DNA of 59,040 bases, filler included. It is 4 parts of 4 records of this genome, joined end to end, with 100 filler letters (N's around TTAATTAATTAA, not from the genome) between each part and the next. Parts side by side here need not be neighbours in the genome. Positions count along the whole stretch, not along the records: positions 35,518 to 59,040 come from SRR20825019_1674; 3 more parts are not named here. One strand, written 5' to 3'. Made by a program: the position numbers and the translations under genes. Position 1 is the stretch's first letter. The number at the start of each line of letters is the position of its first letter. The notes below the pieces were generated by a model. It was given only the letters and a program-made list of their open reading frames with translations, did no database searches and was not told the origin of the DNA. This document shows, piece by piece, positions 11,648 to 59,040 of this stretch.

Positions 11648-11650
11648 GGT

Positions 11651-35517: not shown

Positions 35518-35934
35518 TCCTAAAAATGCATATTTAGAATTACTTGCTCACCCTGACATTATAATTCCATAAACTCCTAAAGATGAAATTGCTAATAAGT
35601 ATAATAAACCAACATTTAGGTCAGCTAAAACCATATTTTCACCAAATGGTATTACAGCTCATGTAATTAAACTTAACATAAAGGTAATAATAGGGGCTAA
35701 TAAGAATATTACAATATTTGCGCTACTTGGTAATACTGTTTCTTTTAATAATAATTTTAAACCATCAGCTAAAGGTTGTAATAAACCAAATATACCTACT
35801 ACATTAGGACCTTGACGTTGCTGTATTGCACCAATAACTTTACGCTCAGCTAAAGTCATATAAGCTACTGCAATTAATAATGGTAAAATAATACCTATAA
35901 TTTTTACAACGTTCTCTAAAATAAATAATATCAT
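35518..35934 (-). CDS. nad1: NADH dehydrogenase subunit 1, 3'-truncated (UGA=Trp)
   Basis: [32 protein letters not shown], continuing through TGA to SG(W)[10 protein letters not shown]. Confidence 0.96.
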
Positions 35935-36029
35935 TTTATTTTTTTTTCTTTTTTTTATTTCTATTATATATAAATATCTTATAGATCTCTCATTTATTCT
36001 TATACTAATTAATATTTAAATTAATTTAA

Positions 36030-38147
36030 TTAATAGGCAAAGTTAGATGTTGGGTTTTTAACACATTTTGCCATAATTTTTGAAGATTTACTAATAGAAT
36101 CTGTCATATAAAAATTATCAATATAAGTTGAAAGTGGTGTAGTAAAAATATTACCTTTTCTAAATTTATCAAGTAATGTATAAGTATTAAAAGAATTATT
36201 AGATAAATTACCTGTCTCAAATGGTAAAACAACTGCAAAGTGATCACGAACTTTAGCTAAAGAATTAAAATGGTTTAAAGGGTTAGTATTAATACATAAA
36301 GTAAATATAGTATTAATATCTTTTCAACTATTATTAATCATAGTTAAAGATTTACGTGCTTTTTTAAATTGGTAAATATTTAATTTAACTGTTTCAGATA
36401 AAGCTTTAATAATTTTTCAATCTTCACGAGCTTTTAGTGGAGGTAAAAAAGCAAATTTAGTTGATTGTAAACGTCCTTCTAAGTTTATATAAGTAGCATT
36501 TTTTTCAGTATATGCTGCTCCTGGTAAAATAACATCTGCTCTTTGAGCTAATTTATCACCATGGTGTCCTTGATATATAACAAAAGCGTCTTGTGGAATA
36601 TTGTGTTTTAAAGTATCATCAGCATTTAATAAATAATATACTTTATTTTTATCATTATTGCTGTTATCAATTAAACCTAAGTCAAATGCTGCTACACGGC
36701 TTGCTGCAGTATGTAATATATTTAATTTGATATTATATTTATTTGCTATGGTATTTAAATTATCAAATAAGATATCACCGTCTTTACGTTGTAAAAGGTG
36801 TGTTCCTACTATAATTACTGGATTGTTACTTTGACGTAATAATTTACAGAAACTATGTTTTCCTTCAATAATCTGTAATAAAGTATCAACGTTATTTCCT
36901 AAATGTTGTACAGTATAGGTTAAATCTAAAGGTGTTCCTATTGATGCTACTAATAGATTATTTCTTAAAAAATTTTTACGTAATCGTAAGTTTAGTAATG
37001 GTGCTTCTTTACGTGGGTTTACTCCAATTAATAAACATAAGTCTGCATTTTCTAAATCAGTTAAACTCATCTGATTTACGTAGTTTTCTCTAAAATCTAT
37101 GTTATTGATATTTACTCCATCGTAACGTGATTCAATAGAATTTGATCCTCAACTATTTATTAAAAGTTTTAATAATAGCATTGATTCAGCATCAGCTAAA
37201 GGGCCTACAATTGCTTTAATTTCATTTGATTTAACATTATTTTTATTGAAATAATCATTGATATGATTAAAAACAGTTGGTCAATCAACAGAAGTTAACT
37301 TATTTTCATTATTACGTATCATTGGTGAACTTAGTCTTTGTCTACGTAAACCATCATATGAAAAGCGTGCTTTATCTGAGATTCATTCTTCATTAATGCT
37401 TTCATTAAGACGAGGTAGAATTCTCATAATATCTGAACCTCGTGTGTCAATTCTGATATTACTACCTAAAGCATCTAATACATCTATCGATTCAATACTT
37501 TTTAATTCTCAAGAACGAGCAGTAAATGCATAGGGTTTAGAAGTAAGAGCTCCAACTGGACATAAATCAATTACATTTCCAGATAATTCTGAATCAAAAG
37601 TTTTTTCTACATAAGTTCCAATTTCAGTATCTCTACCACGACCAGTAGTACCTAAAATTTCTACTCCTGCGATTTCTGAAGCAAAACGAACACAACGTGT
37701 ACAGTGAATACATCTAGTCATAATAGTTTTAATCAAAGGACCACAGTTTTTATCTTCAACACCTCTTTTATATTCATAAAAACGACCACGGTCACTTCCA
37801 TAAATTAAAGCTTGATCTTGTAAATCACACTCTCCTCCTTGATCACAAATAGGACAGTCTAAAGGATGGTTAACTAATAAAAACTCTAATACACCTTCGC
37901 GGGCTTTTTTAACTAAACTAGTATTAGTATATACTTTCATTCCTTCCATAACAGGCATAGCACATGAAGCTATTGGTTTAGGAGATTTTTCAACCTCTAC
38001 TAAACACATTCTACAATTACCAGCAATTGATAATCGTTCATGATAACAGAATCTAGGAATAAATACATTGGCAGTTTCACAAGCTTGTAAAATGGTACAA
38101 CCTGCTTCAACTTCTACTGCTTTGTCATTTATAAAAATATTAACCAT
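36030..38147 (-). CDS. nad11: NADH dehydrogenase subunit 11 (NuoG), full length 705 aa (UGA=Trp)
   Basis: [54 protein letters not shown]-terminal [12 protein letters not shown]. Both ORF-track pieces share one frame. Confidence 0.95.
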
Positions 38148-38309
38148 TTTTATTTATATTATATATATATATGTTAAATTTTTAAATTATTCTAATAGAT
38201 ATCCATCTAAAATAGTACTATTTTATATCCAAAAAACAATTTATAAACTTTTAAATAAAAAAATTGGTATTAAAAATTTAAAGTGTATAACTTGTTAAAC
38301 GATAACATT

Positions 38310-38382
38310 TCAGAGTGATGTGACTTGAACACATGACCTCCTGTTCCCAAAACAGATGCGCTACCGACTGCGCCACACTCTG
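38310..38382 (-). tRNA. trnP: tRNA-Pro(UGG)
   Basis: CAGAGTG/CACTCTG acceptor stem, anticodon loop TT-TGG-GA, TTCAAGT T-loop. Confidence 0.93.
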
Positions 38383-38509
38383 GTTTACTATAATAACTTT
38401 TACAATACTTTAAATATATATTTTTTATATAAACATTATTAGTAATAAATAAAATATTGCAAAAGTTAAAATTACTTATTATTAAATATTGATTATGTAA
38501 GTGTTATAA

Positions 38510-39313
38510 TTACGCACCTCCTCATCAATAAACAGCTACAAATAAGAATAATCATACTACATCAACAAAATGTCAGTATCAAGCAGCAGCTTCGAAACCA
38601 AAATGGTGTTGCTTAGTAAAATGATAACGTACTTGTCTTCCTAAACAAACAGCTAAAAATAAACTACCTACAATTACGTGGAATCCGTGGAATCCTGTAG
38701 CTAAGAAGAAGGTTGAACCGTAAACACTATCAGAAATAGTAAAGGTTGCTTCTTGGTATTCTACACCTTGTAATGCAGTAAATAATACAGCTAAAATTAA
38801 AGTAGCTACTAGTGCTGAAATTACTTGATCACGTCTACCTGCAACAATTGCGTGGTGAGCTCAAGTACAAGTTGCACCTGAAGTTAATAAAATTAAAGTG
38901 TTTAAGAATGGTACTTCTCAAGGGTTAAAAGGTTGAATACCTTTTGGTGGTCAAATTGAACCAATATCAACAGTTGGAGCTAAAGCTGAGTGGAAAAAAG
39001 CTCAAAAAAAGCTAAAAAAGAACATTACTTCTGATATAATAAATAAAATCATACCATAACGTAAACCAAGTTGTACATCAACAGTATGGTGTCCTTCAAA
39101 GGTTCCTTCTCTAATTACATCTCTTCATCAGATAGCCATTGCACCTGTAGTAAAGATTAAACCAAAAGTTAACATAAATCCTCCGCCTGAATATCCCTGC
39201 ATATACATTACTCCTCCTCCAGTTAAAGTTAATGCACCAATTGATGTAATTAATGGTCAAGGACTAGGATCAACAATATGAAAAGGATGACGTTGTGAAA
39301 TTGCTTGAGTCAT
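38510..39313 (-). CDS. cox3: Cytochrome c oxidase subunit 3 (UGA=Trp)
   Basis: [11 protein letters not shown](W)[19 protein letters not shown](W)Y(W)HFVDVV(W); missing from the ORF track because of TGA codons. Confidence 0.96.
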
Positions 39314-39431
39314 AAGTTAATCTATTTTAATATATTTTTTAAATATAAATATTAAAAATTATTTATATAAAATTTTAACACGAAAATAAATATATATATA
39401 CATATCTGTAATATATACTTATTATTTTTAT

Positions 39432-39504
39432 TAGTGGAAGAGGGACTTGAACCCCCGATATATGGATTATGATTCCATCGTTTTACCAACTAAACTATCC
39501 CACC
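39432..39504 (-). tRNA. trnM: tRNA with CAU anticodon (probably elongator Met)
   Basis: GGTGGGA/TTCCACT acceptor, ATGGA-at-CAT-aa-TCCAT anticodon arm. It lacks the initiator GGG/CCC stem; lysidine-modified Ile is not excluded. Confidence 0.85.
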
Positions 39505-39800
39505 ATAAAAAAAAGTTTTTATATAAAAACAATATAAAGGCATGCATATTATAATATAAACCCAAAAATAAATTTTACATAATAATATATAAACTAATAT
39601 ATATTATTACGTAAATATTTTATTAATTGTTCACATACAAATAATGTATTTTAGAACATTTATTTAAAATAATAAAGTATTTTAACTTATAATATATATT
39701 ATATATCATAAGTTAAAAATTTTATCTAAAAATAATGTTATATAACCTTAACTTAATATCTTAATGAAATTATAGTTAATGTTTATTAATGAATAATTTA

Positions 39801-40028
39801 TTAACTTCCAAATAAGATTAAGAAAGCCATCATTAATGCGAATAGACCAATTGCTTCAGTTAATGCGAAACCTAAGATAGTATATCCAAATAATTGTTTT
39901 GCTAAAGAAGGGTTACGAGCTACTGATGAAATATATGCTGAGAATACTGAACCGATTCCTACACCTACTCCTGCTAATGCGATAGTAGCTAATCCTGCTC
40001 CAACTAATTGTGCGCTTTTAAGTAACAT
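39801..40028 (-). CDS. atp9: ATP synthase subunit c
   Basis: [17 protein letters not shown]...ARNP...[12 protein letters not shown]. Confidence 0.97.
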
Positions 40029-40206
40029 AGTTGTTATTATAATTTATTTTTGCTAATATTTTTATATTATATTATAATTTGTTGAAGAAACTTGTCTTCT
40101 TATATAGCCTATACTATAATACAATATACTTCTAAAATACCTTATCAAATATTAAATTATAGAAATTAAAAATGATAATTATTTATAATTAAACGGTTAT
40201 AATATA

Positions 40207-42420
40207 TTATAATTTTATATTATACTCTTTAAAATAATTTTTATAGAACCAAGTTATATTATTTGTAGATAAATTTAATTTATTAAGAATATATAAACCA
40301 CCAAATACCATAACTAATGAACCTAGTCATATAAAACTTACAGTAGGCTGTCAATATATTTTAACAAATCATCCACTTTTTATATTCCCATCACCAATTA
40401 CTACATATAGATCATTGAATAAGTTAGTCTGAATAGAAGCTTTAGTAGTAAAAATATTTTGTATAAGATAAAGGCGTTTTTCAGGAAATAATGAACACAG
40501 AGTATTATCTATATTTTCTTTATAAATCAAGAAATTAGCATATATTGAGTTATAATTAGGAGCTTCAACTAAATTAAAATGGCGTAAAACATAATGATAA
40601 TCATTTAGTATTATACTTTCACCATAGTTTATAATTTGATTTATTTCTTGATAGAAATTAGTAGATATAATAACTCCCAAAATTATAATACTAAAACCTA
40701 AATGCGAAATTATAAATTGAGAATTTCCTAATGAACTACTATTACTATATACGTATACTAAATTTAATATTAACATAAAACTAAATACTAAATTTAATTG
40801 TGTAATATAACTCATTTTATCTAGTAAACTAAAATATTCATTAATAACATTATCATTTGATAAATCTAAAAGTTTAAACATTATGGTAATCTTTAATATT
40901 ATAAAACTAATGATAATAGATAAATTAAACGTAATTATATTTTTATTTATGAATAAATTTTCAATATTATAATTATTCTTAGTTGATCATCTCAGTAAAG
41001 GTCCAAATATCATTAATATTATAAATGGAATAAATAATGGTATTAATAAGTCATTATAAAATGCATTTCCTAAAGATATATCTCTGTTTGATATCATTAG
41101 AAATAATACAGGTGTAATTGTGCCTAAAAAAATAAATACACTAAAAAAACTTAAAAAAGCACTATTAAGTACAATAAACCCTTCACGTGATATTAATGAA
41201 AAAAATTTATCACTTTTATAATTGTTGTATTTAAATATTATTAATAAAGAATAACTCATAATCGATAATACAATTATGATTAAAAGTAAAAATAGTCCAC
41301 GGCCTGAATCATTTGCAAAAGAATGAACTGAGTTTAATAAACCTGATCTAACAAAGAAAGTTCCAATTAAACTAGATATAAATGTAGTAATAGATAAAAA
41401 AAAGGTCCAATTTAATAGTACCTTTTTTCTTATTGAAGAAATTACAGTATGTAGTAAAGCTGTACTAAACAACCAAGGTATTAATGATGCATTTTCTACA
41501 GGATCCCAGAATCATCAACCACCTCACCCTAATTCATAATAAGCTCACCAACTACCTAAAAATATACCAAATGTTAAAAAAATTCAACTTATTAAATTGA
41601 ATAATCGTATCATTGATAATGAATTATCTAAGAATACATAGTTCATCTTAGTATCTAGATAATCAACTTTCTTATTCAAACCTCAACTAAACAGTATAGT
41701 AGTTAATGATATTGAAAAAGTTATTAAAAAACCTAAATAACCACAATATATTAATGGAGGGTGGATTAATAAAACAGGGTCCTGTAATATAGGGTTTAAA
41801 TCAGAACCATTAACTGAATAAAATAATAGTGATAAGAATGGGTTGGATGTGTATAATATAAATATAACAAAAAATAATATTATTAAGTGATTTATAATTA
41901 ATGTATTATTGTAAATCTTATATAATAATTGCTTTTTACTTATAATAGAAAATAAAAAATTGTAAAAACTAAGTATTCATAGTCATAATAACATTGACCC
42001 TTCATGGTTACCCCATAATGAACAAACTTTGTAAAAAAATGGCTGATTATTATGTGAATTGTCAAAAACATTTATATAAAAAAAGTTTGATAATAAAAAT
42101 TGATAACACATATATAGATAACACGATGTTATTATTATGAAAACAATAGAAGAAACTGTTTTATGAAATTTATTATACAATTGTCAATTTTCAGGATTTA
42201 TGTTATATTTTTCAATATGATTATGTATATCGCCTTTACTTGTTCTATTATTATTGATTTTTATGTTTATATTATAATAAATTATTTTTTTATAGATATA
42301 TTTTCATATATTAAAATACGATAATGTTTTAAAAATAAATATAGTAAATAAGTATATTACTAATAATATCAATACTGTATTTAATCCAAAACTACCTCAG
42401 TCGATATAATAATTAAACAT
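40207..42420 (-). CDS. ccmF: Cytochrome c maturation protein CcmF, single unsplit gene of about 737 aa (UGA=Trp)
   Basis: WGNHEGSMLL(W), LNPILQDP..IHPP, W-rich AYYELG(W)GG(WW)FWDPVENAS, VRSGLLNSVHSFA. Three ORF-track fragments share one frame. Confidence 0.93.
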
Positions 42421-42442: not shown

Positions 42443-43273
42443 TTAAGATTTATTATCTATTCGTGATATTGATTTTGATAAGATTTCAATTTTCTTTTTA
42501 AGGATTTCTATGCGTATTAAGTATAAATATATTAGTAATACGTAAGCTAAGCATGCTATAAACATTAGAATTAACGGTATTAACATAACAAAATTAATAG
42601 TACTACCAAATTCTGTTACACTTGCTGGTTGATGTAATGTATTTCATCAATCTACTGAAAATTTAATTATTGGTATATTTAATAAACCAAATATAGCTAA
42701 TATTGAAGGTATAGTAGGTGAAATAGCATCTTTTTTTGATAAAGTTGAAAGGATAATAAAACTAATATATATAAAAAATAAAACTAGTACAGATGTTAAT
42801 CGAGCATCTCAAACCCAATAAGTTCCCCACATAGGTATTCCTCATAAAGATCCAGTAACTAAAGTTATAATAGTAAACACACTACCAATGATAGCACTTA
42901 TATCTGATATATATAATGCTAGGGGATGTTTAGTTATCAAAAATATAAAACAATTAAAACTAAGTGAACAGTATAGTAATAATGAAACTCAAGCACTAGG
43001 TACATGAATAAACATAATACGGTAATATTCACCTTGTCTTAAGTCTGTAGGTGAATGTCATAGACTGAAATATAAACCAATTAAAAAAAGGCAAATAGTA
43101 ATGAATAGAATAAATGGTATTAAATACTTACTAATTTTTAATAGCATATTTGCTTTAAAAATATCATAATTATTTGCAGCAAAATTATCTAACTCAATAG
43201 TATTATTATCTATATTTTTATTTGATTTATCTTTTTCATTAATTTCTGTTTTTTCTGGTAAATTTTTATTCAT
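42443..43273 (-). CDS. ccmC: Heme chaperone-loading protein CcmC (UGA=Trp)
   Basis: QGEYYRIMFIHVP, (W)GIPMWGTYWV(W)DARLTS, SVD(WW)NTLHQP. Confidence 0.94.
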
Positions 43274-43395: not shown

Positions 43396-44061
43396 TTATA
43401 TATTCTTAATTATAAATATAATTACAAAAGGCAATGTAGTACTTATCATTAAACATAAACCTATTAATATTATAAGTTGAGGCAATCATGTACTTATTAA
43501 CATAGTATTGATAATTTGAAGATAATTTAAAGAGATTATAGTAACCGGAATATAGGAAGGTATCAATAATAATCCTATTAAATTATTTCTATTATCAAAT
43601 AATAATGTTATCAAGTTAACTAAAGTACTTATACTATGTAATATAAAGCTTGTTATAGTTATTACTATAAATAGTGCATTTAAACTTATGTGATCAAAAT
43701 GTAAGGTTAGTCTAATTAAAGGTGTTATTAATAGAAAAGGAATTATAATAGATAATCAGTTAATTGTATTTTTTATCCATATTATAATTGGTAAATTTTG
43801 TGTACTAAGAAAATATTGATGTAATAGACCTAATTTATGATCATCTTTGTAAATTGTATTTTGAGATGTTATATGAATAAGTATAAGAGCTAATCAAAAA
43901 AGGTTAATTCCCATTTGTGATAATATCTTAATATCGGGTGTTATTACAAATGGAAAAAATAATGATAAAAATAGAATGAATATTAGCGATATAAAAAGTT
44001 GTTCAATATTTTTTTTATACAAATTAAATTCAATTAATATTAAATTGATATAATATTTCAT
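43396..44061 (-). CDS. ccmB: ABC permease CcmB, 221 aa (UGA=Trp)
   Basis: Hydrophobic ORF between ccmA and ccmC; LFFPF, KDDHKLGLLHQYFLS, KNTIN(W), LIPSYIPV; size and position fit CcmB. Confidence 0.8.
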
Positions 44062-44105: not shown

Positions 44106-44726
44106 TTATAATTGTATTGAAAGTGATTTGGGTATATTAATATTACTATGTGTAGCTATTATAACTATACCTCCGTTCATTCTATGTATATTTATTATTT
44201 TTTCTAACAATTTAATAGAGTTTTTATCTAAATTTGTCACAGGCTCATCTAAAATTCAAATTCTTTTTTTAACTAATAACAGTTTTGATAATGTTAACTT
44301 TCGTTGTTGTCCTTGTGATAAATTATTATAGATGTTTGTATTATTTATATTTAGATTAAATATATGTAATACATAATTAATCGAATAATATAGATTATTT
44401 TTAGTATATATATTTACTATATTATTTAGATTTTCTTTTATAGTAAAATTGGGCCTTAATTCTGGTTTTTCATCTACTAATGTTGTAATTAAATGAAAAT
44501 TTTTTAATAATAATACATTATTAAATATAGAACTATTACAAAATCAAATTGTTCCTAATGTTACTGGTATAAAATTAACTATTAGCTTTAAAAGTGTTGA
44601 TTTTCCACTTCCATTAGACCCAAATAAAATTAAACATCCACCCCTTTTAAGAGAGAAGTTTAAATTTTTTATAATTTTATAAGTGTTTCTTATAAAAGTA
44701 ATTCCAATAGCTTCAATTATAGTCAT
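44106..44726 (-). CDS. ccmA: ABC ATPase CcmA, 206 aa (UGA=Trp)
   Basis: GSNGSGKSTLL, LSQGQQRK, (W)ILDEP, GGIVIIATH. Confidence 0.9.
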
Positions 44727-44799: not shown

Positions 44800-45375
44800 T
44801 TATTTATCTTGACTAGCTTGTTTTGCAATTAATTGTAATTTAACAATTGGAGTAATAATAGTTGATACAATTTTTCTATTAATTGCTTCTTTAGTTTTTA
44901 ATTTAAGTAATTTATTTAATAAAGTATGTGTAATATATTGATTATCAATCTTAGCTAATAATAAAGTAAAAGGAGCTAATTTTGCTACTTTATTTATAGA
45001 TGCTATTGGATCAAGATTTTGATCATTTGAATAAATAATAACAACATTATTATTAAAAGCATTACGTAGAGCAAATATTTCATTTGGTATTAAAATATTT
45101 TTACTATTAGTTTCATTTGATTTAGTATCAAGTGATTTTGTATTATTTAATAATTTAATTAATAATTGAGTAATATAAATAGATTTTAATTTATTACTTT
45201 GTTGTTTTGGTACTAAAGAAATATTTAAATCATTATTACGAATAGAGTTATATAATTCAGTTTGTTTTTCCTGATTTAAATCATCAATTTGTGCTAATAC
45301 AAAAAAAGAACTATTATTTATATTATTAATAAGATGTTTTGTACCTAGTATACTTTTTCTTTTACGTAAATTCAT
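44800..45375 (-). CDS. rpl10: Probable ribosomal protein L10 (uL10), divergent
   Basis: Basic N-terminus, FFVLAQIDDLN...EL...IR, FNNNVVIIYS, LLLAKIDNQYI...KL; size fits. Similarity judged by eye only. Confidence 0.62.
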   Translation of the reverse strand: MNLRKRKSILGTKHLINNINNSSFFVLAQIDDLNQEKQTELYNSIRNNDLNISLVPKQQSNKLKSIYITQLLIKLLNNTKSLDTKSNETNSKNILIPNEIFALRNAFNNNVVIIYSNDQNLDPIASINKVAKLAPFTLLLAKIDNQYITHTLLNKLLKLKTKEAINRKIVSTIITPIVKLQLIAKQASQDK

Positions 45376-49107: not shown

Positions 49108-49860
49108 ATGAATACTTTAAAAACATCACACTCAAAAAAAAATATTGTTCATTTTAAAATTTATCGTTGAGACCCTGCTAAAAATGAACGACCATACCTT
49201 AGTACTTATCCTATTAATACTAATGAATGTGGTCCAATGATTTTAGACGCTCTTATTAAGATAAAAAATGAACAAGATCCAACCTTAACTTTTAGAAGAT
49301 CTTGTCGTGAAGGTATTTGTGGAAGTTGTGCAATGAACATTGAAGGAACTAATACTCTAGCATGTTTACAGAGAATTAATACTGAAGAGACTTCAATTAA
49401 AATTTACCCATTACCTCACATGTATATTGTTAAGGATTTAGTTCCTGATTTAACTAATTTTTATGCTCAATATAAATCTATTGAACCATGATTAAAACGT
49501 AAATCAACAGACGATATTTCTAAAGAAATTTATCAATCAAAACAAAATAGAACTAAATTGGACGGATTATATGAATGTATTTTATGTGCTTGTTGTTCAA
49601 CTAGTTGCCCAAGTTACTGATGAAATAGTGATAAATACTTAGGACCAGCAATTTTATTACAAGCCTACCGTTGAATTATAGATAGTAGAGACGAATATAC
49701 AAACGAAAGATTAAAATCTTTAGAAGATCCTTTTAAATTATATAGATGTCATACTATTATGAATTGTTCAAAAACTTGTCCTAAACATTTAAGTCCGGGT
49801 AAAGCTATTGCAAAAATTAAAAAACAAATAAATGATAATAACCTAAAATTTTTATTCTAG
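49108..49860 (+). CDS. sdh2: Succinate dehydrogenase iron-sulfur subunit
   Basis: FKIYR(W)[28 protein letters not shown](WW)[15 protein letters not shown]. Confidence 0.96.
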
Positions 49861-50032: not shown

Positions 50033-51580
50033 TTATAAAACTAAATTTAATGCTAAGTTATGTGAAAGTATTAACAGAGGTGAAGGTAACATAAAGAAAA
50101 ATATTATAAAGAATAAAGTTGTTCCTAATATAATAGATTCTAGTTTTCCAAAAGTTTTATATAATACTAAATTATTTGATTTTTCAAAATACATTATTTT
50201 AATTAATCTGATGTAATAAAAACATCCTAATGTACTTGTTAATACACCTATAATAGCAATAGTATATAGTTTAGCATCAATAGCTGCAAAGAATACATAT
50301 AATTTACTACAAAAACCTGCTAAAGGTGGTATTCCGGCCATTGAAAATAGTATTAAAGCTAATGTAATACCTAAAACTGGATTACTTTTCGAGATAGCAC
50401 TTAAATCACTAATAAATTTTAAACGAGATAATGTACGCTGTTCTCTTAAATTCATTATAATTGTAAACATAGCAATACTCATTACAATATAAATTAATAT
50501 ATAAACAAATACACTTTGAATACCTTCAATAGTTCCAGTTGTAAATCCAATTAATAAATAACCAATATGTCCAATTGAACTATATATTAAAAGACGTTTT
50601 AATTTAGTTTGATAAAATGCCCCAAAAGTTGCAAACACCATTGATCCTATAGAACATAGTAGTATAATAGGTTGTCATGGTTGGATTAAATCATAAAATG
50701 TATATAATAATAATCGTAAGAAGATTCCTAATAAAGCAATTTTTGGTACAATAGTAAAGTATGCAGTTACTGGAGTTGGTGATCCTTCATATACATCAGG
50801 TGCTCACATATGGAATGGTACTACAGTTAATTTAAATAAGAAAGCACTCATTATAAAAATTAATCCTAATACTAATGCCCCATTACTAGTAAATACAGTT
50901 AATACACTTGGCTCAAACCACATAGTTGATACAAATAAACGCGCTACTCCAATATTACTAAATAACTTATTAAATTCTTCAAAATTAGTTATACCAGTAA
51001 ATCCGTATAGAATAGAACAACCAAATAATAATAGTCCAGATGAAAAAGCACCTAAAATAAAGTATTTAAGTCCTGCTTCAGTTGAATATTCAGAATTTCT
51101 TTTAAATGTTGCAATAATGTATAAAGTTAAACTTACTAACTCGATAGCTAAGTACATTGATATTAAATCATAAGAACTTACTAATAATAACATACCAAAA
51201 CTAGCTAATTGAATTAATAACACGTATTCAAAAGCATTTAACTTTTCATATTTAATATAATTTAACGAAATTAATAAAGTAATTATAGTTGTACATATTA
51301 ATACTCCTTTGATACTAGTACTAAAACTATCAATAATTAATAAATTATTAAATAGAATTCAACCTTCAAAAGGACTATTTATTAATAGCATTAAAGTTAA
51401 TGTAAATGAATAAATTACTAATCAAGTCATTTCTTTAATGATTAACTCGTGTTTATTATAAATTGATGGACTAACTATAACACCATACATTAATAGGCAA
51501 CTAAATACAGTTATTAAATATAATTCAGGTATAAATACTTTAAAATCGTTCTGAAATAAATATAAACAATTTATTGCCAT
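50033..51580 (-). CDS. nad2: NADH dehydrogenase subunit 2 (UGA=Trp)
   Basis: [27 protein letters not shown](W)[31 protein letters not shown]. Confidence 0.96.
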
Positions 51581-51817: not shown

Positions 51818-52213
51818 TTAACTTATACTTTTGTAAGTATTTATCAAAGTTTTTACTCTACTTTTTAAATTGAGAGATTTATCTGTATGATTAATTAATC
51901 TAGCAATTTCATAAAATTCTTTTAATAATTCTTTTTTATTAGTTAGGTTCTTTGCTTTTACCTTTTTTAATAAAAGTACTGAATGTGGGGTTTTTAAATC
52001 AAACTTATAACTACGATCATTATATATTTTGAAATTAACTGGAATAATTGTATTATCTTTTAAATGTTTAGTTTGATCATTAAATTCCTTACAAAAATCC
52101 GCTATTTTTATACCATATTGACCTAGTATCTGATTAATAGGTGCACCTGGTTTAGCATTTGCTGCAGGAATTCTTAATTTTAAATTATGTGTAATAAATT
52201 TACTATCGCTCAT
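51818..52213 (-). CDS. rpl11: Ribosomal protein L11 (uL11)
   Basis: LKLRIPAANAKPGAPINQILGQYGIKIADFCKEFN...IYNDRSYKFDLKTP. The true start is MSDSK (52213). Confidence 0.9.
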   Translation of the reverse strand: MSDSKFITHNLKLRIPAANAKPGAPINQILGQYGIKIADFCKEFNDQTKHLKDNTIIPVNFKIYNDRSYKFDLKTPHSVLLLKKVKAKNLTNKKELLKEFYEIARLINHTDKSLNLKSRVKTLINTYKSIS

Positions 52214-52242
52214 TTTTATTAATCGTCTATACTTATGATATT

Positions 52243-52314
52243 CAGAGGAAAAGGGACTCGAACCCCTACAAATGGTTTTGAAGACCATTATTCTAACCAT
52301 TAAATTATTCCTCC
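52243..52314 (-). tRNA. trnW: tRNA-Trp(UCA)
   Basis: GGAGGAA/TTCCTCT acceptor, G discriminator, ATGGT-ct-TCA-aa-ACCAT anticodon arm, short variable loop (not tRNA-Sec). Confidence 0.92.
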
Positions 52315-52550: not shown

Positions 52551-52584
52551 ATATATATATATCTAATTTATAAAATTGTATAAT

Positions 52585-52656
52585 CGACCCTTACGGGACT
52601 TGAACCCGTGTTTACGCCGTGAAAGGGCGTTGTCCTAACCACTAGACGAAAGGGAC
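52585..52656 (-). tRNA. trnE: tRNA-Glu(UUC)
   Basis: ACGCC-ct-TTC-ac-GGCGT anticodon arm, ACGGG-TTCAAGT-CCCGT T-arm; U2:U71 mismatch in the acceptor stem. Confidence 0.93.
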
Positions 52657-52848
52657 AAAGTATAAAATATTCTTTCTTTATTATAGATTATAAAGTTTAA
52701 TTAATATTAATAAAAATTTAAATATATCTTTATATAATATTATTAATTTTTATTCATAAAAATAATTATCAAAAGTATTGATAAACCAATACTTTTTATT
52801 TATATTTTGTAAATAAAACTACTTTATAATATATAGTATATTTAAATT

Positions 52849-53223
52849 TTATTTTTTCTTTTTAGTACCATATTTTGATCGAGCATGTTTTCTATTATTC
52901 ACTCCATGAAGATCTAATACCCCTCTAATTAAGTGATATCTTACCCCAGGTAGATCTTTAACACGACCTCCACGCATTAAAACAACTGAATGTTCTTGTA
53001 AGTTATGCCCTTCTCCAGGTATATAAGCAATAATTCTTAAATTATTTGATAATTTTAGTTTTACTACTTTCCTTACAGCAGAATTAGGTTTTCTAGGTGA
53101 CATAGTATATACTCGTGTACAAATCCCTTTTCTTTGTGGTGAACTTTGTAGTGCTGGTACTTTATTTCTATACTTTTTTGGTACTCTAGCTTTTTTTTTA
53201 ATTAATTGATTTGAAGTTGGCAT
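52849..53223 (-). CDS. rps12: Ribosomal protein S12
   Basis: [43 protein letters not shown]. Confidence 0.97.
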
Positions 53224-53237
53224 TATATTATTTATTA

Positions 53238-53897
53238 TTATTTCTTTTTAGATTCTTTTCTACGAATAATTTCCTTAGATAACTTAATTCCTTTTCCTTT
53301 ATAAGGTTCAGGTTTTCTTAGTTTTCTGATATTTCATGCTAACTGACTAACTTTTTGTTTATCAGTACCAATGATTGATATGGTAGTAGGTTTATTACAT
53401 AATAAAATAATATCTTTTGGTATATCAACATATACTTTGTGGCTATAACCTATTTTTAGTACAAGTGTTTTATTTTTATTATTTTCCTCAATTGCTGCTT
53501 TATAACCAACCCCAACTAGATTTAAATTAGTTATATAAGCATCGCAAATACCTTTTACATTATTTTCAAGTAATGTTACTAATAAACCTTCTAATGAAAT
53601 TAATTCTTTTTCAGTTAAATTACTAAATAAATTTAAATTAAATTTAGTTTTATCTAATTTCCTTGAACTATTTTTGCTGAATTTTTTATTAGAATATAAA
53701 TGTGTATGTACAGGCTCTAATTCAAAAACCTTTGTTATTCCTTTCTTATTATTATAGATATAATCAGTTTTTAATGTACTTTTTCCTAAACGTCCATCCA
53801 TAATTACATGATTATTTTCCTTATCATAGCTTAAATTAACAGTTTTTGATAAATTAATACTACTTTTTTTTAATAAAGAATAATTTTCTTGTTTCAT
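53238..53897 (-). CDS. rpl6: Ribosomal protein L6 (UGA=Trp)
   Basis: [22 protein letters not shown], then through TGA to [11 protein letters not shown]. Confidence 0.93.
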
Positions 53898-53961: not shown

Positions 53962-54393
53962 TTATGAAATTTTTAATAATAACTCTCCTCCTTCTAATAA
54001 TTTATAGGCTGTTTTATGTGATAAAATGCCTTTATTTGTTGATAATATGTATAAACTAGTTTCTTTATTATTTGAGCCATTCGAGATATAGTTCATTTTA
54101 CGGCTTGTATTTTTAAAATCTTTTAAATCAGTATATATACGTTTACCCGATTTTGAAACTCTTTTTATTTCTTGTATTGCTGGCTTATTTTTATGATACT
54201 TAAGAAAAATTTTAGCTACTTTATTATTTTTAGCATCATTAAATAAAGTATATCCATTAATAAACCCTTCATTTTCTAAAATTTCAATAACTGTTAAAGT
54301 TTCGTGTGATACAATATGTTCAACTACTAGCTTTTCACTTGACAAACCGTTTCTGATTTTAGAAGCTAAATTACTTAAAACATCGTTACTCAT
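53962..54393 (-). CDS. rps8: Ribosomal protein S8
   Basis: DVLSNLASKIRNG, ILENEGFI, RVSKSGKRIY, ILSTNKGIL, GGELL. Confidence 0.93.
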   Translation of the reverse strand: MSNDVLSNLASKIRNGLSSEKLVVEHIVSHETLTVIEILENEGFINGYTLFNDAKNNKVAKIFLKYHKNKPAIQEIKRVSKSGKRIYTDLKDFKNTSRKMNYISNGSNNKETSLYILSTNKGILSHKTAYKLLEGGELLLKIS

Positions 54394-54510: not shown

Positions 54511-54816
54511 TTATCATACTGACTTAATTACGCCTGGAAATTTACCCATAGCAGCTAATTCACGTAACATAATACGTGATAATTTAAAGTCACGGTGAAC
54601 TCCATAAGGTCTTCCTGTAATAGCACAACGGTTCTTAATTCGAGTTAAAGAACTATTTCGTGGTAATTCAGATAATTCTAATCTTGCATTATAAGTTATA
54701 GATTTAGATAATTTTAAGTTATAACTTATTGCTTTTAAAGCTAACCTTTTTTCTCTATACTTTGCTACTAATAAACGACGCTTTTTATCTTTTTCTATCT
54801 GCTTATTGTATTTCAT
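54511..54816 (-). CDS. rps14: Ribosomal protein S14
   Basis: DKKRR, LPRNSS..RIKNRCAITGR, LSRIMLRE, PGVIKSV(W) then TAA. Confidence 0.95.
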
Positions 54817-55059
54817 GATATTAAATATATTGATTTTATAATCCCTTTTCTTTATTTAGGTCTAAACTTATAATGTTTTTATTGTGTAGTTAATCCACAG
54901 CCTTTGAAATAAAAATAAAATAAATATAATATAGTAAAATATGATTTAAATTATAAAAATTTAATTTTAAATGTATCTTATTAATAACCGTATTTATTAA
55001 TATTACAGCCCAATAAAGAGAAAAAATATAAATTAAATTAAAATAAGGTAAACCAAACC

Positions 55060-55521
55060 ATGAACCAAAACTTCAACCTGAAACACTATTTTCCTCAAAA
55101 CTTCTTTTACGAAGAAGTGAAACTCTACGAATCTATGATAACACAGTGCATGACTAATGACGAGTATATCAGTTGGAAAAAGTATAATAGATACAAGAAA
55201 CTATTCGTTTTGTACTTTATTTTTCTTTACTTGATAGCCGAATGTTGTACAAGGGATACACAAAATATTATTGGTCCAATGCTTATGACATCAATAGGTA
55301 TCTGAGGTTTTCATCAGTTAGATATTCTTGAGTTTAGTGTTAAATATGGGAAAGAATACTATTGTAGTCCTATAACAGTTCGTAAAACTCCAGTAATGAA
55401 AAGACTCTCGAATATTTTCAAAGCCATTCAATTACTAAGTCCTTTCGCGTTATTTTTAATAGCAATTTTTGCAACTCTGTTAGTATGATACTATATATAT
55501 AAAGCTATGATACCAGGGTAA
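55060..55521 (+). CDS. Orphan mitochondrial ORF, 153 aa under UGA=Trp, 2-3 hydrophobic segments
   Basis: Open ATG to TAA through two TGA codons; less AT-rich than the flanks; shares motifs with the ORF at 55911-56402. Confidence 0.65.
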
Positions 55522-55585
55522 CTTTTCAATAAATTGAAAAGGCGACTTAGTATATAACAAATAAAATCAAATACTTTATTAATTA

Positions 55586-55742
55586 ATTGATTTATAATGT
55601 TAATAATTACAAAAGTTAATTATTAACATTATAAATCAATACGTATAATAAACTTTCAATATAAGATACTGAAATATTTTGTATTGAAAGTTTATTAATT
55701 ATTATAATGATATAGGGTTTATTTATAAATCCTATATCATTA
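55586..55742. repeat. Three tandem long inverted repeats (hairpins)
   Basis: 55586-55640 perfect 24-bp stem; 55646-55697 and 55705-55742 stems with G:U pairs. Confidence 0.85.
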
Positions 55743-55910
55743 AAGTATATATATAAAAAGTATAAAAGATCAATTTGTAACAAAATTAATCTTTTTTAAC
55801 TTCACTACTAGATAAACTATCAGTTGTACCTTTTGGTAGTCATTCATTAGGAATCTTTTCACCCAGGTATTTCATGCGCTCGACCTCATCTTTAGTCAAT
55901 ACCCCACCTG

Positions 55911-56402
55911 CTAAATGGAGAGATATCTTTCTAAGGGTGACAATTTCTCCGGATACATGGGCTCGTATATCCCGTTATATGTTGTAATAACACCCCCACA
56001 AGCAAGGATGGAAGCGCCCACTGGCTTGAACAAGTGGCTAGTTTTTACAGCACTTGTAAAAAGAGTTTCTATACCTCGTGTTGGGTTAGTTCGTGTTATA
56101 AAGTAAGTATATCCTACTTCTACATTAAAACGTAGTAAAACACTTTGATTAATTGCAAATACAATTAGCAACAGCATAATTACATTAAATACAATATTAT
56201 TTATAACAGTCCCATAGAGTTGAAGGCCAGTTAACCTAGTAAAAATATAAAAAATATAACATGGCATCAGCGCTGAATTGATTTTCGATCTGCGATCGAA
56301 TCAGGTTTCATATTTACTATAACCCATATAATCTCGCAGCATGCTATAATATAATTGATTCTCAGAATTTAGAATCCTTTTAAACTTGTTAATTAAATTC
56401 AT
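55911..56402 (-). CDS. Orphan mitochondrial ORF, 163 aa under UGA=Trp (possibly frameshifted near its end)
   Basis: ATG at 56402 (MNLINKFKRIL...) reads through one TGA into the ORF-track protein and ends at TAG 55911. Confidence 0.6.
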
Positions 56403-56803
56403 AGTTGTTCTACTTTTGTTCTATATATTTATTAATACATATATTCTTGATATATATACATATTAATAATATCTATATATTTCTATATAGATATCATCAA
56501 TATAAATAAAAATGTGAATCAAATATAAGAAATCGTGTATATCAATAGCTTAATATATTACTATACTTATACTATTAATCCATTTTGTGGTAGTCTTCCA
56601 CATTTCCTAAAGAACTTGTTTTGAGGTTGAATTCCTGCTTATATGCTTTCAGCAGTTATTACATCCATACGTAGCTACCTAGCGATGCTGTTGGCACAAC
56701 AACTAGTACACCAGCGGTATGTTCTTCCCGGTCCTCTCGTACTCGGGTTAACTCCTCTCAATTCTCTTTCACTTACGGTAGATAGGAGCCAAACTGTCTC
56801 ACG

Positions 56804-57802
56804 CATTTTACTCTCGTCTTTTCAAACGGAATGGACTATATCTTCATCCAATATAAACATAAATATAGTTTATAATTGGAGCTAGCGTATTATAAAAATG
56901 TTAAATATTTATTAATATCAACAGATTTATCTTATAATTTAATACAAAACTATAAAGTCTCTACGGGGAAAATAATGTATGAAATAAGTTACTGCTATAC
57001 TAATAACTTATAATTAAAACTAGGTATAATATATGGTTTAATAATATTTGTAAAATTATATGTTGAGTTAGATGATATTCTAATTTTATAGTTATCTCTA
57101 TCTTTAATAATGTTAACTTCTAAACCAAATAAGCGACCTAAAGAATTAGCTAAAATTTTTTGTTCATTATAACAGAAACTTTGGGTGTTTAATAAATATA
57201 CTTTATCTCTTTTATCAAAACTACCGTCATCCATAAATCAATAAGAAAGAGATCTATCATTTAATAATTTATGTAACAACTTAGGTATTTTTTTTCGTCT
57301 TCTATTTGTTGCAATATCAATTATATAAAATTGATCATTATAGAATTTAAATGACGAATTTGTACAAGTACGAAAGTAATATTTATGTAACAAACTATCT
57401 TTATATCTAAAAGAACTTTTCTTTACACCAGTAGAACATCAATCTTCAAAGTGATTATATATATGTTCTACGTATAATTTTTGACTTTCTTTTTGATTAA
57501 AATAATATCTACATATAAAGTTTTTTCCTCTTGGCTCTAAATGAGCATCTCCTAATAAAGTTCCTACAAGTATATCTTTTTGAACTTGTGATAAACGTAG
57601 GTGACTTTTATATAAAGTTTTATCAGGATGGCTTCCTTTATATTTCAATACATCTTTAGTTAATTTCATTTTTATTGTAATACATTATAATCTTCCCTCG
57701 GTATTACCATGGACGCAGTTTGCCCGTCTTTAGGTTTCACCGATATCAGCTAGTACTAAAATGATATTACTATCATTTAACGCCGTTGTTTTAATTACAA
57801 TA
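56804..57802 (-). mobile_element. Group I intron at rnl position equivalent to E. coli 2593
   Basis: Exon ends in U and intron ends in G; core elements ATCGGTGAAA, AATACCGAG, GTAGAGACT, AAGATATAGTCC. Confidence 0.92.
56995..57669 (-). CDS. Intronic double-motif LAGLIDADG homing endonuclease (I-SceI-like), 224 aa
   Basis: ILVGTLLGDAHL and LSY(W)FMDDGS; the two ORF-track fragments join under UGA=Trp; lies between the Q and R core elements. Confidence 0.9.
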
Positions 57803-57895
57803 ACGTTCTAAACCCAGGTCACGTACCTCTTTAATGGACGAACAGTCCAACCCTTGGAACCTGCTTCAGCTCCAGGATGAGATGACCCGACATCG

Positions 57896-58909
57896 CAAAT
57901 ATTAAATTTATATTTTCTTATCTTCAATTTTATATTTAAACTGGTCTAACAAATAAGGAGCAACTAATAATTTAAAACTATCAATATTCTTTTTGGGTAA
58001 ATATAATCTATAATACTTACCATGTTTATGAATAGATACTTGAAAACCAAAATTTTTTCCTAAAATAGATGCTAATAGTTTTTGTTCAAAAAGTTGGAAA
58101 CCTTCTGTAGAAAAGTGTATACCAACAACTTTTCCATTTTTATCGAAAACTGTAGTACCATCGTCCATAAATCAGTAAGATAAAGCTCTTTGATTTAATC
58201 AACGGTGCAATAACTTAGGTACTTTTTTTTTGTTAGTTGATTTATCATAAAATTGGTTAAAATAAAAAGCTAACGATTTATGTTTATATGTAGTTATATA
58301 ATAACTAATATAAGTTTTATCTAAATATCTTTTATCATTATATATTCTCTTCTGAGGTAATTTATTACATCATTGATTAAATATACTAAATAAATGGTAT
58401 ATATAAGTTTTATTTTTATAAGATTGACAAAATTTTAATGAATATAACTTAGTTTTACTATTAGGAATATAAGCATCACCTAATAATGTACCTATTATTA
58501 TATCTTTTTGTTCTTGTGTTAATCTTAAATTATTTTTATGATATGTTAAATCTTTACCTTTTAAATTAAAATGTTTCATTAATTATTTTATATAAATTCC
58601 TATAAATTTTATAGGCTAATTATCGCTAATTAGATTAGACTATATCTTTATCCGTTATAATATATAATAAAATAGTATAATGGATATTTGGCGTTTAGTC
58701 GTTGAGGTTCCTACTTACATATTATATAATATAGTATGTGTTGGTTACCTGCGGATTGTCTGCACTTTAATTAATAATATCCTTGAATATATCAAATTAA
58801 AGATACTTTATACATTATATTTAATGTAAGGTCAGAGGTTCCCGCATATGGCCAAATTCTGTTATTTCTATTACTAGAAACCCACCCCAATGTCATTATG
58901 TTTACATAA
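57896..58909 (-). mobile_element. Group I intron at rnl position equivalent to E. coli 2500
   Basis: Exon ends in U and intron ends in G; core elements ATGCGGGAAC, AATCCGCAGG, TCAACGACTA, AAGATATAGTCT. Confidence 0.92.
57908..58579 (-). CDS. Intronic double-motif LAGLIDADG homing endonuclease (I-SceI-like), 223 aa
   Basis: IIIGTLLGDAYI and ALSY(W)FMDDGT; lies downstream of the S element, ending 12 nt before the intron 3' end. Confidence 0.9.
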
Positions 58910-59040
58910 AGGTGCCAAACGATCTCGTCGATAGGAGCTCTAGGAGATCATTAGCCTGTTATCCCTAAGGTACCTTTTATCCGTTGAGCGATGACCTTTC
59001 CACAAAGAATCACCGGATCACTATGGCCGACTTTCGTCTC

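Follow-up and report, generated by a model that had tools for sequence, protein, structure and literature searches.

The window analysed here is the whole stretch of 59,040 nucleotides, in which positions 35518-59040 form a separate contig of 23,523 bases with 25% GC. With a probability of roughly nine in ten, we interpret this contig as an incomplete mitochondrial genome of a marine protist that carries ancestral-type, gene-rich mtDNA, uses genetic code 4 and belongs to a lineage that falls outside the crown jakobids sampled. Genomes of this kind are uncommon yet recognisable, and the one described here is real. Gene-rich mitochondrial DNA had already been proposed in the first-pass annotation, and both the Pfam and NCBIfam gene matches and the CcmF tree bear this out.

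Contig boundaries

Three linkers of the form N44-TTAATTAATTAA-N44 are present in the window (16438-16537, 28446-28545 and 35418-35517). Positions 35518-59040 therefore represent one independent contig, which the artificial N/stop linker ties to three unrelated GC-rich contigs. At the last linker the GC content falls from 0.51-0.63 in the bins of positions 1-34000 to 0.18-0.28 in those starting at 36001. The adjoining of an AT-rich and a GC-rich part might suggest mitochondrial DNA inserted into the nuclear genome or a chimeric assembly, beside GC-rich nuclear DNA; however, the junction is the same spacer that is found at two further sites, code 4 leaves each of the 23 complete ORFs intact and the same sequence occurs in independent runs, so that hardly any weight can be given to such an origin.

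Gene content

All 20 protein genes assigned on the contig lie within the known mitochondrial gene set; the other features are four tRNAs, two ORFs without a family, the 3' part of rnl and two group I introns (Table 1).

Table 1. Features annotated on the contig, in positions of the window.
Feature	Position	Strand	Support
nad1, 5' part, 139 codons, truncated by contig end	35518-35934	-	Pfam NADHdh 4.9e-50, profile positions 2-128 of 298
nad11, 705 aa	36030-38147	-	seven Pfam families incl. Fer2_4, NADH-G_4Fe-4S_3, Molybdopterin 6.7e-93, NADH_dhqG_C
trnP(ugg)	38310-38382	-	ARAGORN; Rfam tRNA 65.8 bits
cox3	38510-39313	-	Pfam COX3 7.7e-119
trnM(cau)	39431-39505	-	ARAGORN; Rfam
atp9	39801-40028	-	Pfam ATP-synt_C 1.4e-14
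ccmF, 737 aa, N-terminal extension of ~95 aa	40207-42420	-	Pfam CcmF_C 3e-57, Cytochrom_C_asm 1.1e-45
ccmC	42443-43273	-	NCBIfam TIGR01191 219 bits (cut-off 186); Pfam
ccmB	43396-44061	-	Pfam CcmB 5e-23, 82 bits (cut-off 24.9)
ccmA	44106-44726	-	NCBIfam TIGR01189 133.7 bits (cut-off 131.6); Pfam ABC_tran
orf191, probable rpl10	44800-45375	-	NCBIfam L10 PRK00099 E=1.6e-9, 37.8 bits (cut-off 85)
nad4	45630-47096	+	Pfam Proton_antipo_M 1.4e-80
cox2	47417-48223	+	Pfam COX2 1.1e-63, COX2_TM 2.2e-29
nad8, 163 aa	48440-48931	+	Pfam Fer4 families, two 4Fe-4S motifs
sdh2	49108-49860	+	Pfam Fer2_3 2e-32, Fer4_17
nad2 (inferred)	50033-51580	-	Pfam Proton_antipo_M 6.3e-77
rpl11 (as listed)	51818-52300	-	Pfam Ribosomal_L11_N 1.6e-20 from residue 40; TIGR01632 2.6e-25
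trnW(uca)	52243-52314	-	ARAGORN; Rfam tRNA 67.2 bits
tatA, 54 aa	52386-52550	-	NCBIfam TatA models 1.6e-8 to 2.9e-8, under curated cut-offs
trnE(uuc)	52584-52657	-	ARAGORN; Rfam
rps12	52849-53223	-	Pfam Ribosom_S12_S23 1.3e-36
rpl6	53238-53897	-	Pfam Ribosomal_L6 2.7e-16
rps8	53962-54393	-	Pfam Ribosomal_S8 2e-23
rps14	54511-54816	-	Pfam Ribosomal_S14 2.7e-23
orf153, hydrophobic	55060-55521	+	GC3 0.32 (~0.11 elsewhere)
orf163	55911-56402	-	GC3 0.30
rnl, 3' part, truncated by contig end	56528-59040	-	Rfam LSU_rRNA_bacteria, three pieces (164, 85, 120 bits)
group I intron 1, 999 nt	56804-57802	-	Rfam Intron_gpI partial, 29 bits
LAGLIDADG ORF of intron 1	56995-57669		Pfam LAGLIDADG_2 3.2e-37
group I intron 2, 1014 nt	57896-58909	-	Rfam Intron_gpI 68.5 bits, full model, above gathering score
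LAGLIDADG ORF of intron 2	57908-58579		Pfam LAGLIDADG_2 2.5e-40

The family matches confirm the joint presence of sdh2, nad8, ccmA/B/C/F, rpl11 and rpl6, and nad11 is unsplit as claimed earlier, since the Molybdopterin domain lies in one ORF with the Fe-S domains of the N-terminus. From its length, and with nad4 located elsewhere, we infer that 50033-51580 is nad2. The genes ccmA-ccmB-ccmC-ccmF form one contiguous, co-oriented cluster; against NCBIfam TIGR01190, ccmB reached 1.9e-19, under the cut-off of that model. The proposed tatA and probable rpl10 fared less well: matches were found, but with scores below the curated cut-offs. For tatA, Pfam TatA_B_E gave 18.5 bits (cut-off 21), whereas orf191, which is probably rpl10, had no Pfam match and drew L10 leads of 0.86-0.87 in the protein atlas. 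The scores of rpl11, rpl6, rps8, rps12 and rps14 exceed the Pfam cut-offs. Because the listed rpl11 ORF overlaps trnW, translation of rpl11 probably begins at the ATG at position 52213.

Neither orf153 nor orf163 matched a Pfam or NCBIfam family, and a search of orf163 against 1.84 billion representatives returned one match, to a repetitive protein and over 24 residues only. One metagenome contig has an in-frame 3-base deletion within orf153.

As a partial molecule of 23.5 kb, the contig contains no cox1, cob or rns and lacks most ribosomal genes, and the gene richness of the whole mitogenome is therefore an extrapolation. Jakobid and Mantamonas mtDNAs are more 'bacteria-like' than this contig, which has a coding density of ~83% and no prominent Shine-Dalgarno-like motif upstream of the 22 starts examined.

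UGA as the main tryptophan codon

The contig is read with NCBI code 4, and UGA is its main Trp codon. Across 24 ORFs, TGA occurs in frame 81 times compared with 12 TGG codons, in-frame TAA or TAG codons are absent, and the stop codon of the complete ORFs is TAA in 20 and TAG in 3 of 23 cases. Where Nad11 and CcmF alignment columns were at least 80% conserved, TGA fell on a conserved Trp in 13 of 15 cases, the other two being Leu and Tyr, and no further codon reassignment was apparent in this check. In cox3, all 12 TGA codons stand opposite Trp in a solved COX3 chain. The tRNA at 52243-52314 has the anticodon tca and is called 'SeC' by ARAGORN, but Trp under code 4. Codon counts, alignments and this tRNA thus uphold the UGA=Trp assignment made from the sequence at first reading.

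The accompanying remark on jakobids, to which a standard code was ascribed, is in line with the methods section of the Ophirina paper, which gives a standard or bacterial code for them. The contig differs in this respect from all ccm-bearing lineages compared, in which the code is standard; Provora, Microheliella, Hemimastigophora and Solarion lie outside this comparison. Meteora, Mantamonas and Palpitomonas are excluded as the source by their standard code and their absence of introns.

Group I introns in rnl

Two group I introns interrupt rnl, and for each of them public runs contain rRNA contigs joined without it. The exons (56528-56803, 57803-57895 and 58910-59040) were defined by public-run contigs that skip 56804-57802 and 57896-58909. 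The joint 56803>57803 was found in X1 and the joint 57895>58910 in both X1 and X2; in two runs of one coded organism, the joins lack exactly 999 and 1014 bases.

Phylogenetic placement

All trees were quick trees of one gene each, with SH-aLRT as the only measure of support. The CcmF tree comprised 35 rows (the query, 14 of 120 protein matches and 20 of 80 metagenome loci) from a compositionally heterogeneous set. Here the query and the row P0121 (support 100) joined Reclinomonas (98) and, at 99, P0125, and together these were separate from 28 rows taken as bacterial, 15 of them low-GC. A bacterial placement, named in the first-pass annotation as counter-evidence, was thus not what the tree returned, and judged from its genes and this tree the contig is mitochondrial, not bacterial. 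Low GC, UGA=Trp, bacterial-type ccm and tat genes and the bacterial contigs also present in the window would fit a highly reduced alphaproteobacterial endosymbiont genome with code 4. Against this stand, besides the position of CcmF, the 70-80% identity of Nad4 with its mitochondrial counterparts in plants, jakobids and Mantamonas, an assigned gene content confined to the mitochondrial set, and the LAGLIDADG-bearing group I introns in the rRNA gene. The bacterial contigs, at 58-63% GC, are moreover separate and linked by the artificial linker only. An endosymbiont is accordingly very improbable.

Turning to the mitochondrial lineages, a jakobid was the top named match in all three protein searches (Nad11, CcmF and Nad4), Reclinomonas grouped with the query in the CcmF tree, and the ccmABCF cluster is kept as in jakobids (according to the available part of PMC5174734). 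The contig could therefore be a divergent jakobid or jakobid-sister mtDNA in which UGA has switched to Trp. Reclinomonas was, however, the only named mitochondrial lineage in the CcmF tree, and the high rank of jakobids points to slow evolution, since mosses are equally similar in Nad4 (70% versus 71%). The query lay outside the jakobid clade both in the Nad4 tree (61 rows, including 60 of 120 matches; clade of 25 rows, support 99) and in the Nad11 tree (49 rows, including 48 of 120 matches; clade of 21 rows, support 92), where it fell in a polytomy. With Nad4, the AU test rejected a position inside the Jakoba/Reclinomonas clade (p-AU 0.0025; group named post hoc from the tree), whereas a clade of the query plus all 25 jakobid-clade rows was not rejected (p-AU 0.42). 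The jakobid code, the lack of rpo genes, rpl12 and secY within the 23.5 kb, and the gene order (rpl10 then ccmA, rpl6 then rps12) also speak against a jakobid, and we regard this origin as unlikely. By these trees, the lineage is outside the sampled crown jakobids. Of the earlier claim of a non-jakobid, deep-branching eukaryote, the exclusion from crown Jakoba/Reclinomonas stood; its wide sense was not supported, given the unrejected jakobid-sister position and the Nad11 polytomy, and deep branching is unproven.

Closest relatives and occurrence in public data

The protein search space covered 5.8 billion clusters including nr, UniRef and EukProt. An exact look-up found none of six contig proteins (0/6), and no near-identical protein was present among these clusters; near-identity to a published mitogenome, the other counter-evidence named beforehand, was thus not seen at the protein level. 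Best identities were 57% by BLASTP or 60% over tree columns for Nad11 (top named match Seculamonas, 57%), 49% to an environmental fragment for CcmF and 80% to the environmental fragment P0241 for Nad4, followed in Nad4 by Reclinomonas (71-72%), Mantamonas plastica (72%) and mosses (70%). Close relatives of the contig were two short environmental fragments only. At the nucleotide level, one marine-metagenome run yielded, among the matches listed, seven short contigs with 0-2 differences and one with 7, and two public runs of one coded organism contained contigs with 0-3 differences. From these near-identical short contigs it follows that the organism has already been sequenced by someone. A poorly sampled lineage, as proposed earlier, is plausible in view of the few close relatives; the presence of the organism in public runs weakens the proposal.

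Rather than representing a new lineage, the organism may be a member of a gene-rich group described before, for example a provoran (nibblerid or nebulid), Microheliella, a hemimastigote or Solarion, its mitogenome simply missing from the searched collection, which is an undated snapshot. Provorans, Meteora and hemimastigotes are reported to have mitogenomes rich in genes, among them ccm and sdh genes as well as rpl10, and in provorans a group I intron that harbours a LAGLIDADG ORF is reported for rnl (PMC12432456). The near-identical contigs from the coded organism point in the same direction, but nothing above the identities given above was found in a collection that contains nr, UniRef and EukProt, and we consider such an assignment possible yet tentative.

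Predicted roles of the retained genes

Many genes kept on this contig have been transferred to the nucleus in most eukaryotes. The ccm genes are the bacterial System I genes for cytochrome c maturation. Going by what is known of these families, TatA would act with TatC, whose gene is absent from the 23.5-kb fragment, to insert substrates that are already folded, for example the Rieske protein. CcmAB and CcmC would pass haem to a nucleus-encoded CcmE, and its attachment to apocytochromes c and c1 would fall to CcmF together with a nuclear CcmH. In translating the mitochondrial genes, the mtDNA-encoded tRNA-Trp(UCA) would read both UGA and UGG.

Composition of the window

The window is interrupted by three identical copies of an artificial spacer (44 N, TTAATTAATTAA and a further 44 N), and it therefore consists of four contigs and not of one molecule. 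These contigs are unrelated and their common filing is the sole link between them. Since the third copy of the spacer lies at the step in GC content at 35.5 kb, this step is no biological junction.

Bacterial-type genes occur on the first two contigs (GC 0.57-0.63) and encode a DctM-DUF3394 TRAP transporter, a STAS-MlaE permease, a class-III aminotransferase, an M20 peptidase, two ketoacyl synthases and an aldehyde dehydrogenase, which implies that the source was mixed or non-axenic. The third contig consists of a single intron-less open frame from end to end (2,301 codons, both ends open); it encodes five PAS domains, several hydrophobic stretches and a TPR region of TmcB type.

Positions of the contigs, spacers and features of the mitochondrial contig; its genes are given in their order along the window
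Feature	Position	Strand	Remark
First contig	1-16437		bacterial-type genes
Spacer, copy 1	16438-16537		
Second contig	16538-28445		bacterial-type genes
Spacer, copy 2	28446-28545		
Third contig	28546-35417		6.9 kb, GC about 0.54
Spacer, copy 3	35418-35517		
Fourth contig	35518-59040		GC 0.18-0.28
nad1, nad11, trnP, cox3, trnM, atp9		minus	nad1: first 139 codons, cut by contig end
ccmF	40207-42420	minus	
ccmC, ccmB, ccmA, orf191		minus	orf191: probable rpl10
nad4, cox2, nad8, sdh2		plus	
nad2		minus	
rpl11, longest frame	51818-52300 (together with trnW, 51818-52314)	minus	probable start ATG at 52213
trnW, tatA, trnE, rps12, rpl6, rps8, rps14		minus	
orf153	55060-55521	plus	
orf163	55911-56402	minus	
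rnl, 3' part			about 500 exon bases, two introns
rnl intron 1	56804-57802		999 nt
LAGLIDADG ORF of intron 1	56995-57669		LAGLIDADG_2, 3.2e-37
rnl intron 2	57896-58909		1014 nt
LAGLIDADG ORF of intron 2	57908-58579		LAGLIDADG_2, 2.5e-40

Gene content and gene order

The fourth contig was read with translation table 4; 23.5 kb are seen, and both ends are cut, in nad1 and in rnl. Most of the genes passed the curated thresholds widely (e.g. COX3 7.7e-119, Molybdopterin 6.7e-93, CcmF_C 3e-57), and nad11 is unsplit, with one frame of 705 codons comprising the Fe-S and the molybdopterin parts. The genes ccmA, ccmB, ccmC, ccmF, tatA, rpl10, sdh2, nad8 and nad11, whose status as rarely retained genes is taken from the available part of the Mantamonas preprint, were all present, with tatA and rpl10 remaining below threshold. 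Thus, the genes that had led the first-pass annotation to describe a gene-rich mitogenome fragment of ancestral type were recovered.

The 54-codon putative tatA matched TatA models at about 1e-8, under their cut-offs, and tatC was absent from the 23.5-kb fragment. For orf191 the NCBIfam L10 model gave 1.6e-9 and 37.8 bits (cut-off 85) and the protein atlas also pointed to L10, with no match in Pfam. The longest frame of rpl11 extends 58 bases into trnW(uca); because residue 40 is the first of the conserved L11 domain, the gene probably starts at the later ATG.

Genes, rRNA exons and introns together cover 83.5% of the contig, and the spacers between genes are 14-389 bases long with a GC content of 0.00-0.22. 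Upstream of 22 starts no Shine-Dalgarno-like word was enriched, only A/T-rich words, and the sole repeats found in the contig were the two paralogous intron ORFs. Seven extra tRNAs, called by ARAGORN in metazoan-mitochondrial mode in this AT-rich sequence, were treated as false positives.

The two ORFs orf153 and orf163 differ from the other genes by their third-position GC content (0.30-0.32 vs about 0.11), and neither had a family match. A single match to orf163 was obtained among 1.84 billion representatives, an uninformative one covering 24 residues of a repetitive 618-aa protein. When the region 54800-56540 was searched against Rfam (E up to 10), all 8 matches stayed under the gathering scores, and no 5S, rnpB or tmRNA was found.

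In the bacterial spc operon the gene order is rps14-rps8-rpl6. On the coding strand of the contig the same order is seen, but rps12 comes next, and ccmA comes directly after rpl10; thus the bacterial ribosomal-protein superoperon is broken at both points. According to the available part of the Mantamonas preprint, this superoperon is retained around secY in jakobids and Mantamonas. Neither rpo genes nor rpl12, rpl18 or secY were found within the 23.5-kb fragment.

UGA is read as tryptophan

The 24 frames contain 81 TGA vs 12 TGG codons; of the 23 complete frames, 20 are terminated by TAA and 3 by TAG. A conserved-column test used alignments of Nad11 to 79 homologues and of CcmF to 120, and within them the columns conserved to at least 80%. 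At such columns, TGA stood opposite Trp in 13 of 15 cases (Leu and Tyr once each), and table 4 predicted the most frequent conserved residue of each codon that had sufficient columns for a judgement. The cox3 gene contains no TGG, and its TGA codons align with Trp of a solved COX3 chain in 12/12 cases. A tRNA with the anticodon UCA adjoins rpl11, and would be the one that decodes UGA. The codon counts, the conserved Trp columns, the cox3 alignment and this tRNA together show that UGA specifies Trp, as the first reading of the contig had held.

Two introns in rnl

Both rnl introns contain a LAGLIDADG ORF, and the Rfam group I core was found complete in the upstream intron 2 (68.5 bits) and partially in intron 1 (29 bits). 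From these matches, both are classified as group I introns with a predicted LAGLIDADG homing endonuclease. The two ORFs are paralogous, with a DNA identity of 74-78% over stretches of 74-84 bases, which suggests duplication or spread of an intron within rnl.

The intron borders follow from short contigs of X1 and X2, two public sequencing runs of one coded organism, in which 56803 adjoins 57803 and 57895 adjoins 58910, and which are compatible with either spliced RNA or intron-less DNA. Among the public runs matching the contig, no RNA datasets were listed. Loose ends in X1 resemble what we take to be library adapter and template-switch oligonucleotides, and no expression was inferred from them.

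System I ccm genes and the mitochondrial origin of the contig

The scores of ccmA and ccmC exceeded the TIGR01189 and TIGR01191 cut-offs, respectively, whereas CcmB and CcmF_C were recognized by Pfam matches, and CcmF contains the WGGWWFWD motif of the WWD domain. Judged by these matches, the contig is predicted to encode the System I Ccm components CcmA (the ABC ATPase), CcmB and CcmC (permease or haem-handling subunits) and CcmF (the haem lyase). Among the matches listed, the closest CcmF was that of P0121, an environmental protein of 792 aa (49% identity, with the long N-terminus in common), followed by Reclinomonas (43-44%). The conserved domain of CcmF is preceded by about 95 additional N-terminal residues; solely P0121 matched them (query coverage 96% vs 82-87% for the other 119 matches listed). 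A metagenome scan with CcmF yielded encoded relatives in 596 of 597 stretches, 80 of which were kept, with a top identity of 40%. Nine of the first 40 metagenome loci had a GC content of 26-31%; these were rejected as relatives, as they resemble low-GC marine bacteria.

The CcmF tree comprised 35 rows. Besides the query, these were 14 of the 120 protein matches and 20 of the 80 loci kept from the metagenome scan, picked to cover low-GC and high-GC bacteria and every named match. In this quick tree, calculated without bootstrap from rows of heterogeneous composition, the query paired with P0121 (SH-aLRT 100), was joined by Reclinomonas (98) and, including a further homologue, P0125, formed a group of seven rows (99), apart from the other 28 rows taken as bacterial, 15 of them low-GC. 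Placement inside bacteria, as the reduced genome of an endosymbiont, had been named in the first-pass annotation as an outcome that would overturn its reading. Such an origin is very improbable, since CcmF goes with Reclinomonas and away from the 28 bacterial rows, and the mitochondrial gene set accounts for 20/20 assigned protein genes (two further ORFs are present in the 23.5 kb seen). Likewise, Nad4 has an identity of 70-80% with its mitochondrial counterparts (the environmental P0241 80%, Mantamonas plastica 72%, Reclinomonas 71-72%, mosses 70%), and an rRNA gene with group I introns and LAGLIDADG ORFs also speaks against an endosymbiont. The contig is thus part of a mitochondrial and not of a bacterial genome.

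Occurrence and phylogenetic placement

An exact look-up of six proteins in a collection of 15 billion proteins found none of them. Near-identity to a published mitogenome, the second outcome that would have spoken against the first reading, was not seen among the protein matches either, the best protein identities being 57% for Nad11 (Seculamonas and one other protein) and the values of P0121 and P0241 for CcmF and Nad4. A scan of viral contigs with Nad11 returned four pattern matches and no relatives. Near-identical sequences were nevertheless present in public runs: short contigs of X1 and X2 showed 0-3 differences over nad4, cox2, nad8, sdh2, rps12-rpl6 and the intron ORFs, and among eight pieces listed from a marine-metagenome run, seven had 0-2 differences and one had 7. 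Together with P0241, these near-identities indicate a marine organism that others have already sampled and that has one or more remoter relatives in the environment.

In a Nad4 tree of 61 rows (the query and 60 of 120 matches), the query and P0241 (SH-aLRT 99) were placed outside the streptophytes and outside a jakobid clade of 25 rows (99), which contains Andalucia, Jakoba, Reclinomonas and many nameless sequences. The branches joining the pair to the tree had a support of 30, and M. plastica was not grouped with the query. Of ten clusters looked up for nameless tree rows, one bore a name, that of M. plastica. When the pair was constrained to fall within the Jakoba/Reclinomonas clade, a group chosen after seeing the tree, the log-likelihood changed by -36.8 units (p-AU 0.0025), whereas a constraint uniting the pair and all 25 jakobid rows in a single clade cost 0.9 units (p-AU 0.42). 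In the Nad11 tree (49 rows, the query and 48 of 120 matches) the query was in a polytomy, outside both a clade of nucleus-encoded homologues (SH-aLRT 99) and that of the jakobids (21 rows with a support of 92). From the two trees and the AU tests we conclude that the contig does not belong to a crown jakobid, and that a position as sister of the jakobids is allowed. Of the initial proposal of a non-jakobid, deep-branching eukaryote, the non-jakobid part therefore holds with respect to crown jakobids, but not against a jakobid sister, and the deep branching is a possibility. That jakobids rank as the top matches mostly reflects slow evolution of both.

Many contigs from public assemblies (13-79 kb; P0003-P0023 and P0250-P0331) fell inside the jakobid clade in the Nad4 and Nad11 trees, and 20 of the 25 rows of the Nad4 jakobid clade are without a name. 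Environmental jakobid-like mitogenomes seem to far outnumber the named ones.

Comparison with known mitogenomes

The contig shares with jakobids (Reclinomonas americana, Andalucia godoyi, Seculamonas, Ophirina) the ccmA-B-C-F cluster and mitochondrion-encoded rpl11, sdh2, nad8 and nad11, as well as tatA and rpl10, which are putative in the contig (gene lists in the available parts of PMC7194472 and PMC5174734). In the descriptions at hand, ccmA-C and ccmF are given for jakobids, and ccmB is named for Ophirina. Jakobids also provided the best named matches for Nad11, CcmF and Nad4. Unlike jakobids, the contig uses UGA for Trp, contains two rnl group I introns, lacks rpo, rpl12, rpl18 and secY within the fragment, and has no clear Shine-Dalgarno motif. 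In line with the standard code given for jakobids in the first-pass annotation, jakobids including Ophirina use the standard or bacterial code (code 11), and introns were not found in Ophirina ORFs, both according to the portion of PMC6212452 available. The coding share of about 83% contrasts with about 89-94% in jakobid mtDNA.

The remaining comparisons likewise draw on excerpts of the published descriptions. Mantamonas sphyraenae (CRuMs) resembles the contig in its GC content of ~26% and in rare genes such as ccmABCF, tatA and rpl10, but was annotated with the standard code and has no introns and 90.3% coding sequence (preprint). For Palpitomonas bilix (Cryptista), the ccmABCF operon and rpl10 are described, whereas neither a deviant code nor introns are reported in the excerpt (PMC5174734). 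This species was absent from the best 120 matches in each of the Nad11, CcmF and Nad4 searches. Several members of Meteora, Provora and Hemimastigophora ('prometheids') are marine. Mitogenomes of this group are described as gene-rich, with sdh genes and rpl10, and in Meteora with ccmABCF; Meteora differs from the contig in its standard code, lack of introns and large inverted repeats. For provorans, a group I intron with a LAGLIDADG ORF in rnl is described alongside ccm, sdh and rpl10 genes (part of PMC12432456), and they are for this reason the leading described candidate.

Ancyromonads share an AT-rich, moderately gene-rich mitogenome with nad8, nad11 and sdh2, but in the descriptions at hand they lack ccm and introns, and have trnW(cca) and code 11 or 1. 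Telonemids are likewise AT-rich and moderately gene-rich, one of them with an rnl LAGLIDADG intron, but are described in the same excerpt as without sdh and without 'heme biosynthesis' genes, here taken as ccm (PMC12432456). In the accessible descriptions, Diphylleia has only ccmC and ccmF, the standard code and group II introns, some Heterolobosea have ccmA, ccmC and ccmF with the universal code, and a basal euglenozoan SAG uses TGA for Trp, with no ccm listed. Among the lineages compared, from which Provora, Ancoracysta, Microheliella, Hemimastigophora and Solarion were left out, the excerpts describe none with both a ccmABCF cluster and UGA as Trp. According to the part of a review consulted, the canonical code is the one found in gene-rich mitochondria of deep branches (PMC10809612).

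Significance

Altogether, the contig is a true piece of a protist mitogenome that is gene-rich, evolves slowly and uses code 4, possibly that of a new lineage. We put at a little under one in five the probability that it represents a major eukaryote lineage without a described mitogenome, either a jakobid sister or a separate deep branch, with a gene content rivalling that of jakobids and Mantamonas, and the first ccm-operon-bearing mitogenome of ancestral type off the standard code. Its value hinges on the whole molecule and on placement of the organism; a described provoran or similar would make it a routine addition.

As far as the sources at hand go, gene-rich mitogenomes reveal how often System I ccm, tatA and rpl10 were lost independently. 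Since the ccm-cluster lineages compared all use the standard code, a slowly evolving gene-rich mtDNA with UGA as Trp would be a useful natural test of when the code change arose and of whether code disparity hinders transfer to the nucleus. If the contig does represent such a major lineage, one could directly test whether genes become locked into the organelle by code disparity.
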